Source: a virus. Taken from it: DNA of 26,836 nucleotides. Shown here piece after piece: positions 12,675 to 13,207 of the stretch. The DNA is taken from UHGV virus genome UHGV-0045954, one strand, 5' to 3'. Within the stretch, counting starts at the first letter, position 1, and each line of letters starts with the position of its first letter. The notes beneath the pieces were generated by a model, which saw only the letters and a program-made list of their open reading frames with translations, had not been told where the DNA came from and searched no databases. The translations under genes were made by a program, and so were the position numbers.

Positions 12675-12844
12675 TATTTAAAAATTTCAACGGGTAACTG
12701 ATACCCTGCTAATCGCCTGATGCTTTCTTTTTCAGCAACGGGAAAGCAACAACCACACACCCGCCACCAAAACACCATCAGACAGCACCGACATTATCCG
12801 GCTGCTGAAGTCCACCATCACCACCAGAAACAACAGGAGTGCAA

Positions 12845-12893
12845 CCACAGCTGCTTAGAAGGCAATTGCTCTGCCCGGCTGAGCTAACAACGC
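12845..12893 (-). pseudogene. tRNA-Arg(UCU)-like 5' fragment (argN/argO-type remnant)
   Basis: Minus-strand GCGTTGTTAGCTCAGCCGGGCAGAGCAATTGCCTTCTAAGCAGC has acceptor/D-arm and anticodon loop CUUCUAA, but no T-arm or matching 3' acceptor follows. Confidence 0.35.
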
Positions 12894-12993
12894 TGAATAC
12901 CGATAATGGACCGCCATCGGGGACCCGCCCCCGCACCAACAACCCTGTTATCGTGTCGTCTGCTCTTCCTGATAAGCTAATGGCGGTTTGTGA

Positions 12994-13069
12994 TGGTGGC
13001 CCTTGCTGGATTTGAACCAGCGACCTGGCGATTATGAGTCGCTCGCTCTCACCACTGAGCTAAAGGGCC
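12994..13069 (-). tRNA. tRNA with CAU anticodon, tRNA-Ile2 (ileX/ileZ-like); tRNA-Met not excluded
   Basis: 76-nt cloverleaf folded by hand: 7-bp acceptor GGCCCTT/AAGGGCC, D-arm GCTC/GAGC, anticodon loop CUCAUAA, T-arm GCTGG-TTCAAAT-CCAGC, encoded CCA; close to E. coli ileX by recollection. Confidence 0.8.
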
Positions 13070-13106
13070 GGGAGTAGAATAATAACGGTCCGTAATTAAT
13101 TCCGCA

Positions 13107-13134
13107 ATAAAAAACCCGCTCGGCGGCGGGGTGT
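13107..13134 (-). terminator. intrinsic terminator of the short late leader RNA (tR'-like)
   Basis: On minus strand CCCGCCGCCGAGCGGG hairpin followed by TTTTTTATT, about 45 nt downstream of the predicted late-promoter start. Confidence 0.55.
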
Positions 13135-13179
13135 AGAAACTCTTCTAACGTCAGGCATAAAAAGCCCATTATTATGACG

Positions 13180-13207
13180 AATTTACCACAGATTCCGGAA
13201 AAATCAA
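13180..13207 (-). promoter_or_regulatory. late promoter pR'-like just downstream of Q
   Basis: -35 TTGATT (13207..13202), 16-nt spacer, extended -10 TGgTAAATT (13185..13180); TAAATT is also the lambda pR' -10. Confidence 0.5.

Follow-up and report, generated by a model that had tools for sequence, protein, structure and literature searches.

A probable lambda-type late-gene switch followed by a partly deleted Stx-phage tRNA cassette in a lambdoid Escherichia coli prophage

For late-gene control by a Q antiterminator, the lambda model of the late promoter pR' places the Q-binding site between the -35 and -10 elements (PMC9388147). Stx phages add two features to this theme. One is StxS, an sRNA produced by early termination of the pR' transcript, which RNase E processes to 74 nt from a 258-nt leader associated with a Q of 144 aa (PMC7547250). 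The other is a trio of intact tRNA genes, ileZ, argN(UCG) and argO(UCU), which in the Sakai prophage Sp5 stands in the order Q-tR'-ileZ-argN-argO-stx2AB, and for which a mapped primary start site between tR' and stx2AB appears to drive the tRNAs (PMC7547250). The Qin prophage of E. coli K-12 encodes a Q-lambda-family protein, ydfT (quuQ), with its own promoter, AACGAT-GGG element and short terminator; a literature search for published start-site data on this homologous promoter gave nothing usable.

Set against these systems, the locus described here, taken from a window of 26,836 nucleotides (the whole stretch of DNA that was analysed), very probably combines an ordinary lambdoid late-gene switch, in an E. 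coli prophage, with a partly deleted Stx-phage tRNA cassette. Q, promoter, leader and tRNA cassette all lie on the minus strand of the window, as do all other features located below. The locus is an uncharacterised but ordinary member of a well-known system, and the results leave current understanding unchanged; their use is mainly in annotation, in that a late promoter, a pause element and a terminator, all predicted, can now be placed in a common type of E. coli prophage for which public records give no more than the Q gene and the tRNA.

The Q gene (13213..14034, stop codon at 13215..13213) encodes a 273-aa antiterminator of the lambda-Q family, as seen from its Pfam domain (PF03589, E 1.2e-54), its end-to-end BLASTP alignment with lambda Q (30% identity, E 1e-38) and its match to chain Q of PDB entry 7ubm (E 1e-39). 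It differs from lambda Q by an insertion of ~68 aa bearing extra CxxC pairs. We rejected a reading of PF03589 as the phage 82 Q family, both on the direct comparison with lambda Q and because PF03589 is the Q-lambda family (PMC9388147). Membership of the lambda family makes lambda pR' the appropriate model, by which Q would bind between -35 and -10 at this locus and the polymerase would pause at about +16/17.

An earlier note on this DNA had placed an extended -10 promoter directly after Q, with a terminator about 45 nt past its predicted start, and both the promoter elements and the terminator were indeed found there. The -35 hexamer TTGATT of the predicted pR' (13202..13207) and the extended -10 element TGgTAAATT (13180..13188, with TGg at 13188..13186 and TAAATT at 13185..13180) can be read directly from the sequence, the latter also by comparison with lambda and with relatives, and together form the arrangement TTGATT-16 nt-TGgTAAATT (13207..13180) after Q. 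On the lambda model, the 16-nt spacer (13186..13201) is the presumed position of the Q-binding element. The predicted start is the A at 13173, the first base of a candidate sigma-dependent pause element, AATAAT followed by GGG (13165..13173). The window sequence TAAATT-cgtcat-AATAAT-GGG and its lambda counterpart TAAATT-tgactc-AACGAT-GGG share this register with the same 6-nt gap, and the window contains a single copy of the composite motif TAAATT-N6-AAYRAT-GGG, as against 0.01 occurrences expected by chance. Further downstream, we take the G at +8, the T at +17 and the G at +18 to fit the elemental pause consensus. A generic promoter scan did not list the pR' site, because its two hexamers match the consensus at only 8 of 12 positions (a modest raw consensus strength); the case for this promoter is thus one of homology and conservation rather than of consensus strength.

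This conservation extends well beyond E. coli. Among 15 loci of Q relatives (40–98% identity) from about ten enterobacterial genera, the promoter and pause layout is kept in 14, from Escherichia, Shigella, Atlantibacter, Scandinavium, Kosakonia, Mangrovibacter, Phytobacter, Buttiauxella and Entomohabitans, as well as in lambda. What recurs is a -35 beginning with TTG (a TTG... hexamer occupies the equivalent place in the 14 relatives and in lambda), a TG 5' of the -10, the 6-nt gap, AAYGAT and then GGG (AGG at one locus, L011). The spacer sequence, in turn, varies between Q subgroups across the 15-locus comparison, which is compatible with each Q having its own site there, the presumed Q-binding element. 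The pause element itself occurs as the natural variants AATAAT, AATGAT and AACGAT in closely related prophages, and these could be used in studies of sigma-dependent pausing.

Compared with the lambda late cassette, the locus thus has a homologous Q, an identical -10 (TAAATT), a promoter located directly after the Q gene, a -10-like element with GGG after it at the same 6-nt distance, and an intrinsic terminator ahead of the late genes. It departs from lambda in its pause element (AATAAT, closer to consensus than the AACGAT of lambda), in its 16-nt spacer with a canonical TGn extended -10 (17 nt for the lambda spacer), and in the sequence of that spacer, the presumed Q-binding site, which is unrelated to that of lambda.

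The terminator, tR' (13109..13130, CCCGC-cgccga-GCGGG then T6), was recovered both by a terminator scan and in the centroid fold as a hairpin with a 5-bp all-GC stem and a 6-nt loop, beginning at ~+44 from the predicted start at 13173. Its stem is shorter than the 7 bp of close relatives because an A-to-C change removes two A-U pairs at the base of the stem. All 14 relatives keeping the promoter layout likewise have a short GC hairpin with a T run, located 45–75 nt downstream. Promoter and terminator positions together delimit a predicted terminated leader RNA of ~62–65 nt (13109..13173), which would be the counterpart of the lambda 6S RNA, although at ~65 nt it is considerably shorter than the 194-nt leader of lambda. 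The Qin arrangement of K-12 is similar from Q-lambda-family protein through promoter and pause element to short terminator, but the two Q proteins are only ~40% identical (a figure obtained at L019, an E. coli locus outside K-12 with a downstream region that matches K-12 Qin), and Qin has no tRNA cassette, its cold-shock genes coming next instead.

By homology with lambda, we infer that the switch would operate as follows. RNA polymerase would start constitutively at pR', near 13173, and sigma-70 would re-bind the -10-like AATAAT at +1 to +6, so that the polymerase pauses near +16/+17. Without Q, transcription would end at the hairpin and T6 (13130..13109) and release the ~65-nt RNA; once Q has accumulated, it could bind its site in the promoter spacer, load on the paused polymerase and allow read-through of tR'. 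The Q-modified polymerase would presumably also pass three further terminators in an sRNA region and so reach the lysis and head genes. On its way it would cross a putative mobile block, beginning right after tR', with a promoter-like site of its own and tRNA genes; among these, ileZ may be transcribed by two routes, its own promoter and Q read-through, and would read AUA after lysidine modification.

This block corresponds to the Stx-phage cassette. The earlier note had described an intact tRNA(CAU) resembling ileX/ileZ followed by the 5' half of a tRNA-Arg(UCU), and had taken the two for what remains after decay of the ileZ-argN-argO trio found at this position in Stx phages. We indeed observed the trio at the equivalent position in Lahn2 and Sakai Sp5, and the alignment of the window to the Lahn2 ileZ-argN-argO region runs base for base; the proposed link to this cassette therefore stands, while the idea of decay needs amending, as the loss of argO is attributable to one ~650-bp deletion and a dead argN copy had been overlooked. 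In the window, ileZ occupies 12994..13069, the dead copy, psi-argN, 12907..12986 and the argO fragment 12852..12893. Like the cassettes of 933W, Sakai Sp5 and Lahn2, they lie downstream of the late terminator in the order ileZ-argN-argO, with a 40-nt block conserved upstream of ileZ, an ileZ identical to that of Lahn2 (76/76) and an argO 5' part identical except for one D-loop base. Unlike in those phages, argN is dead, argO is cut after nucleotide 42 and no stx genes follow; Q is of the lambda family here as against 144 aa in Sp5 and Lahn2; and tR' abuts the cassette directly, with no fragment of a methyltransferase gene in between. Order and position are thus those of the Stx-phage trio, but only ileZ is intact, and on these alignments the locus is a degraded derivative of the ileZ-argN-argO cassette rather than an intact member.

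Where the cassette begins bears on how ileZ would be expressed. Homology to Stx phages sets in at 13109, right at the TTGC of a -35-like hexamer, and the sequences upstream of this point are unrelated: tR' in the window, but in Sakai, DS566 and Lahn2 the last part of a DNA methyltransferase gene. The promoter-like site at the start of this shared block (TTGCGG-17 nt-TATTAT, 13079..13107) ends 9 nt before ileZ. It is tempting to speculate that ileZ is transcribed mainly from this promoter, in lysogens as well as upon induction, with Q read-through adding little, in which case ileZ would not be a late gene at all; we regard this proposal as evenly poised. In its favor, the shared block begins precisely at the -35-like hexamer whatever the upstream context, and the cassette of DS566 ends in a terminator-like hairpin after argO, so that promoter, genes and terminator would make up a self-contained inserted unit. 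However, the site is weak by consensus, with a -35 matching at only 3 of 6 positions and no extended -10, and read-through from pR' must still cross ileZ; both routes can operate. Because the cassette carries a conserved promoter-like site, Q need not be the sole determinant of ileZ expression, and Q read-through is probably not the only route to it. Transcription from the cassette's own promoter qualifies the main explanation, a lambda-type late switch reading through the cassette, but does not replace it. More generally, these comparisons show that the tRNA cassette of Stx phages is passed on as a self-contained unit, complete with a promoter-like site, that it can stand behind Q genes of different families, and that it loses members by discrete deletion.

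Such a deletion can be traced at the argO end. Alignments to intact argO (tRNA-Arg UCU) show that the fragment corresponds to nucleotides 1–42, identical bar one D-loop substitution up to ...CTTCTAAGCA, and that it ends three bases after the anticodon loop. It yields only a sub-threshold partial match to the Rfam tRNA model (13.9 bits, model positions 10–42) and is not called by ARAGORN, which reports the tRNA(CAU) and no intact tRNA-Arg. BLAST homology to intact argO stops at 12852. A MAFFT alignment proposed TGGTTGCACTCCTGT, after this breakpoint, as the argO T arm, a resemblance that we consider coincidental; comparison with DS566 assigns it to a DUF3927 gene. Strain DS566 retains the parental order ileZ-argN-argO-terB-DUF3927, to which the sequence on either side of the junction aligns. 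Judged from this comparison, argO was lost beyond nucleotide 42 in one clean step, a ~650-bp deletion, and not through gradual erosion; the same deletion also took the cassette terminator, the TerB-family gene and the start of the DUF3927 gene. The exact argO/DUF3927 junction is present in 325 of 5,426 complete E. coli genomes. One lysogen with this prophage is E. coli M217 (NZ_AP019189.1). What is left of the DUF3927 gene, which codes for a small membrane protein, spans 12732..12851 (from comparison with DS566 and Ec4973, and from RefSeq); it has lost its first 7 codons and carries a 1-nt frameshift deletion near 12757, yet RefSeq still annotates 12848..12732 as a 38-aa protein.

This accumulation of damage (psi-argN, the truncated argO, the truncated and frameshifted DUF3927 gene), together with the terminator stem weakened by one substitution, could be taken to mean that the prophage is cryptic, its promoter-leader module an inactive relic and the true late start, if any, elsewhere. 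Four "phage" records matching the window at 99.9% identity point the same way, being prophage predictions from clinical genomes and not induced particles, and we rejected them as proof of an inducible phage. We nevertheless consider a cryptic prophage unlikely: Q has an intact reading frame, the layout from promoter through pause element to terminator is complete and in the same register as lambda, the lysis, terminase, portal and capsid reading frames downstream in the window are open, and the decay is limited to accessory cargo.

We also see little likelihood that the ~65-nt leader acts as a constitutive trans-acting regulatory RNA like StxS or, separately, that the argN-like allele is a functional tRNA-like RNA. 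The leader resembles StxS in being a predicted short transcript from a presumably constitutive late promoter, ending at tR' in lysogens, but has no sequence similarity to it. A search of 12700..13220 against Rfam with permissive thresholds gave only chance-level matches for the leader and no Rfam family; among them, a Trp-leader match was caused by the terminator and was discarded as chance-level. In folding, the leader does not outperform shuffled sequence (z = 0.07), so that, the terminator hairpin aside, there is no indication of a structured RNA. A segment from +7 to +27 (GGGC.TT.TATG....ACGTT) is conserved in Q-lambda-family prophages of several enterobacterial genera, a pattern more simply explained by the requirements of sigma-dependent pausing.

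As for psi-argN, alignments indicate that the ends of its acceptor and D stems are kept, that ~35 nt of its core are replaced, and that its T loop reads GCGGGT instead of TTCGAGT. The replaced core is common (1,823 of 5,426 E. coli genomes, 972 of these at >=99% identity) and invariant in five sampled copies, and in an stx2-carrying prophage of STEC276 (RefSeq subtype label e/i/l/k) the argN-like allele adjoins a canonical T arm and is annotated by RefSeq as tRNA-OTHER. These observations might suggest that the element is a conserved, functional RNA of non-canonical tRNA-like form rather than a dead gene, a reading that we find very unlikely: neither ARAGORN nor Rfam calls the element, hand parsing of the window copy and the fold of the related STEC276 copy reveal no cloverleaf and no anticodon arm, the T-loop region varies between copies in poly-G length, as expected without constraint, and prophage DNA that has spread recently would be highly identical in any case. 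By sequence, psi-argN is rather a dead allele widespread in E. coli.

The one tRNA called by ARAGORN (13069..12994, anticodon CAU, CCA encoded) scores 72.5 bits over the full length of the Rfam tRNA model, and comparison with other tRNA genes identifies it as ileZ/ileX-like rather than Met-like, an intact gene of the tRNA-Ile2 type. An elongator tRNA-Met, the label given by ARAGORN (from the anticodon alone) and by GenBank phage records, is extremely unlikely, as the gene matches K-12 ileX at 68 of 76 positions, differs from metT/metU throughout the acceptor, anticodon and T stems, keeps the ileX-type C4 and C5 where tRNA-Met has T and A, and is annotated as tRNA-Ile in RefSeq and named ileZ in the Sakai and Lahn2 records. 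Work by Ikeuchi and colleagues in 2005 reportedly found that TilS separates tRNA-Ile2 from tRNA-Met by the C4-G69 and C5-G68 pairs. In the window's late genes, AUA makes up 6.1 per 1000 codons (counted in the window's own reading frames), compared with a host average of roughly 4–5 per 1000 in E. coli, so that translation of the late genes shows no evident need for ileZ.

Just beyond the tRNA region, on the path of the late transcript, lies the first of two STnc100-family sRNA genes (12450..12643, minus strand; Rfam RF02076, 138 bits), with a terminator from the terminator scan at 12478..12459. The second copy (11986..12174, minus strand; 132.5 bits, terminator at 12016..11995) follows at a repeat spacing of ~468 nt.

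Our follow-up confirms the observation in the earlier note, which had read a late control region at 12700-13207, and supports its interpretation, with four corrections: the family to which Q belongs, an additional dead argN gene, the loss of argO by deletion instead of erosion, and a promoter-like site of the tRNA cassette's own. The window, a lambdoid prophage, is collinear with one in E. coli M217, with a gene order of integrase, excisionase, exonuclease, dicB, repressor, cro, replication genes, hokD, DUF968, RusA and Q, followed by tRNA, IraM, holin, lysozyme, iss, terminase, portal and capsid genes; all features of the late control region lie on the minus strand. 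These elements belong to well-described kinds of system, and identical sequence occurs in hundreds of public genomes in which Q and the tRNA genes are annotated. What we add to the public records is a promoter, a pause element and a terminator, all predicted.

The Q antiterminator reading frame (14034..13213, minus strand, stop codon 13215..13213) matches Pfam PF03589 (E 1.2e-54), which is the lambda-Q family (Yin et al., PMC9388147), and aligns with lambda Q from first to last residue (30% identity, E 1e-38). Among solved structures, its best match is to the lambda Q chain of the loading complex 7ubm. Reading PF03589 as the phage 82 Q family is ruled out by Yin et al. (PMC9388147) and by this direct alignment. 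Relative to lambda Q, the window Q carries an insertion of ~68 residues (about 114-181) with extra CxxC pairs; the insertion also has a weak DnaJ CXXCXGXG match and resembles a second zinc-ribbon arm. Since the window Q belongs to the lambda family, the relevant model is lambda pR', in which the -35 and -10 flank a Q-binding element, the first transcribed bases form a -10-like, sigma-dependent pause element, and a terminator comes after (PMC9388147).

A promoter of this kind (-35 TTGATT, then TGgTAAATT) had been noted immediately after Q, with an intrinsic terminator downstream, and both are present as described (promoter at 13207..13180, minus strand). As read from the sequence, the -35 hexamer (13207..13202) sits five bases past the Q stop, and a 16-nt spacer, which includes TGg at 13188..13186, separates it from TAAATT (13185..13180); the terminator scan places the hairpin CCCGC-cgccga-GCGGG plus T6 at 13130..13109. 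The promoter was absent from the output of a generic promoter scan because its two hexamers fit the consensus at only 8/12 positions, and given this modest fit the case for it is built on the lambda match and on conservation. Lambda pR' reads TTGACT-17-TAAATT-tgactc-AACGAT-GGG and the window TTGATT-16-TAAATT-cgtcat-AATAAT-GGG, i.e., the -10 hexamer and the 6-nt length of the gap are identical, and the -10-like element and GGG stand in equal register. Chance would give 0.01 occurrences of the pattern TAAATT-N6-AAYRAT-GGG in the 26.8-kb window, which has one. By analogy, transcription would start at the A at 13173 and pause near +16/+17 (13158/13157); the transcript bases at +8 (G), +17 (T) and +18 (G) presumably conform to the elemental pause consensus. 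For the terminated leader, a length of ~62-65 nt is predicted (vs. 194 nt in lambda); its folding is no more stable than that of shuffled sequence (z = 0.07), and it had no family match in an Rfam search. Compared with M217, mEp460 and Ec4973, an A-to-C change at 13131..13133 (minus strand) shortens the stem of tR', the terminator predicted to end this leader, from 7 bp to 5 bp by loss of the two basal A-U pairs.

To place this layout among relatives, we scanned one genome per bacterial species and recovered 16 loci encoding Q relatives (40-98% identity) from Escherichia, Shigella, Atlantibacter, Scandinavium, Kosakonia, Mangrovibacter, Phytobacter, Buttiauxella and Entomohabitans. Fifteen of the 16 were inspected; with L018 and L020 repeating the downstream sequences of L017 and L019, 14 distinct sequences were compared. 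A single layout 3' of the Q stop was common to 14 of the 15 loci: a TTG -35, a TA...T hexamer closely preceded by TG, and, after a 6-nt gap, AAYGAT and GGG (AGG in L011 alone), then a short GC hairpin and T run 45-75 nt further downstream. The sequence of the -35/-10 spacer varies by Q subgroup, as a Q-specific binding site would predict, a pattern that does not itself locate the site. The pause element is AATAAT in the window (13168..13173, minus strand), AATGAT in E. coli ECMA0423 (L007) and AACGAT in E. albertii (L008), which forms a natural series in close relatives from consensus-like to lambda-like. The K-12 Qin prophage has the same layout as the window after ydfT (quuQ), with promoter, AACGAT-GGG element and short terminator. 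This Qin site (L027 4361..4460, minus strand; about 1,642,360-1,642,460 of the record) predicts a ~60-nt RNA from near 1,642,422, minus strand, where the RefSeq K-12 record has no RNA annotated.

Downstream of tR', ARAGORN calls a tRNA with anticodon CAU (13069..12994, minus strand; Rfam 72.5 bits), its sole call in the whole window, in agreement with the intact ileX/ileZ-like gene described earlier. This tRNA is identical to ileZ of Stx phage Lahn2 at 76/76 positions and to K-12 ileX at 68/76, several of the differences from ileX being compensatory. It carries C4 and C5, vs. T and A in metT and metU; lysidine synthetase reportedly recognises tRNA-Ile2 by its C4-G69 and C5-G68 pairs (Ikeuchi et al. 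2005). A Met identity is given by ARAGORN and GenBank phage records, which take the anticodon literally; the ileX-type body, C4/C5 and the RefSeq label tRNA-Ile all speak against it. Codon usage in the window is 6.1 AUA per 1000 codons in late genes and 9.5 in early genes. The host average is roughly 4-5 per 1000, so late-gene translation shows no evident particular demand for ileZ. A repressor-like reading frame (20307..20945, plus strand, 212 codons) has 8 AUA, far above the rest of the prophage, and it is tempting to speculate that this gene could benefit if ileZ comes from its own promoter in lysogens.

The earlier note had also proposed a decayed ileZ-argN-argO cassette, which stands in that the window aligns base for base to this trio but needs amending for both arginine genes. 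In Lahn2 and Sakai Sp5, ileZ, argN(UCG) and argO(UCU) follow the late terminator, with stx2AB next in Sp5. The window retains a dead argN (12986..12907, minus strand), missed earlier, with acceptor and D-stem ends preserved, ~35 nt of core unrelated to argN, and a T loop of GCGGGT, not TTCGAGT. Neither ARAGORN nor Rfam calls this copy, and hand parsing of it yielded neither an anticodon arm nor a cloverleaf. This allele, old and widespread, was found in 1,823 of 5,426 complete E. coli genomes, O157:H7 and O111:H8 strains among them, and 972 of the 1,823 carry it at >=99% identity. An stx2-carrying prophage of STEC276 (RefSeq subtype label e/i/l/k) has the dead-argN core beside a canonical T arm, a copy that RefSeq calls tRNA-OTHER, and T-loop poly-G length varies among further copies.

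For argO, the reported 5' half of a tRNA-Arg(UCU) was recovered as its first 42 nt (12893..12852, minus strand), a partial, sub-threshold tRNA match at model positions 10-42; ARAGORN calls neither this fragment nor any intact tRNA-Arg. With the exception of one D-loop substitution, identity to intact argO runs as far as ...CTTCTAAGCA (12852); from there on the sequence is that of a DUF3927 gene, entered at codon 8. A MAFFT alignment had offered the stretch past the breakpoint as an argO T arm; it is DUF3927 gene, not tRNA. The parental order is seen in strain DS566 (ileZ-argN-argO-terminator-like hairpin-terB-DUF3927), and both junction flanks align to it, implying a 654-bp deletion. As judged from these alignments, argO was evidently cut by deletion, not eroded. 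A 1-nt frameshift is a further lesion of the DUF3927 remnant, of which RefSeq still annotates 38 codons. The exact argO/DUF3927 junction recurs in 325 of the 5,426 genomes and four prophage-derived phage records, and intact argO is retained in relatives such as Ec4973, mEp460 and L007.

Homology to Stx phages begins at 13109, within the tR' T run. ATTGC, 40 nt 5' of ileZ, opens the shared block irrespective of what precedes it, which is tR' in the window and, in Sakai, DS566 and Lahn2, the last part of a DNA methyltransferase gene. Q, promoter and terminator are the same in E. albertii L008, which has no tRNA downstream, and Entomohabitans teleogrylli (L022) has a different tRNA-Arg(UCU) right after the terminator. 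The constant block start and these contents show that the Q-pR'-tR' module can be separated from the tRNA cassette, and L008 and L022 together that the slot after tR' acquired tRNA genes more than once. Inside the shared block, a promoter-like TTGCGG-17-TATTAT (13107..13079, minus strand) stops 9 nt short of the 5' end of the mature tRNA. In Sakai Sp5, a primary start that seems to serve the tRNAs has been mapped between tR' and stx2AB (PMC7547250). In the window, ileZ is probably made both from the cassette's own promoter and by Q read-through.

Rfam matches in the window comprise DicF, sok, one tRNA and two STnc100 sRNA genes. The latter (12643..12450, 138 bits, and 12174..11986, 132.5 bits, both minus strand) lie in a duplication of ~468 nt that follows the tRNA remnants and precedes the lysis genes, where the late transcript would cross them. 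The terminator scan gives a strong terminator for each copy and a third between them, which Q-modified polymerase would have to pass to reach the DUF1737 gene, holin and lysis genes. In Stx2 phages STnc100 lies 75 nt downstream of stx2 (PMC12370729), and it is reported to be kin of PasD, whose genes lie near lambda-family Q genes (bioRxiv 10.64898/2026.05.13.724894). The region after the remnants is thus equivalent to the Stx-phage accessory-gene slot minus the toxin genes. Between Q and holin, an IraM-like anti-adapter gene (11625..11960, plus strand) lies on the opposite strand, with 5 AUA in 111 codons. Elsewhere, the window carries an iss (bor-like) lipoprotein gene (8903..9211, plus strand), a hok/sok toxin-antitoxin pair (15918..16243, minus strand), and DicF upstream of dicB (22231..22282, plus strand).
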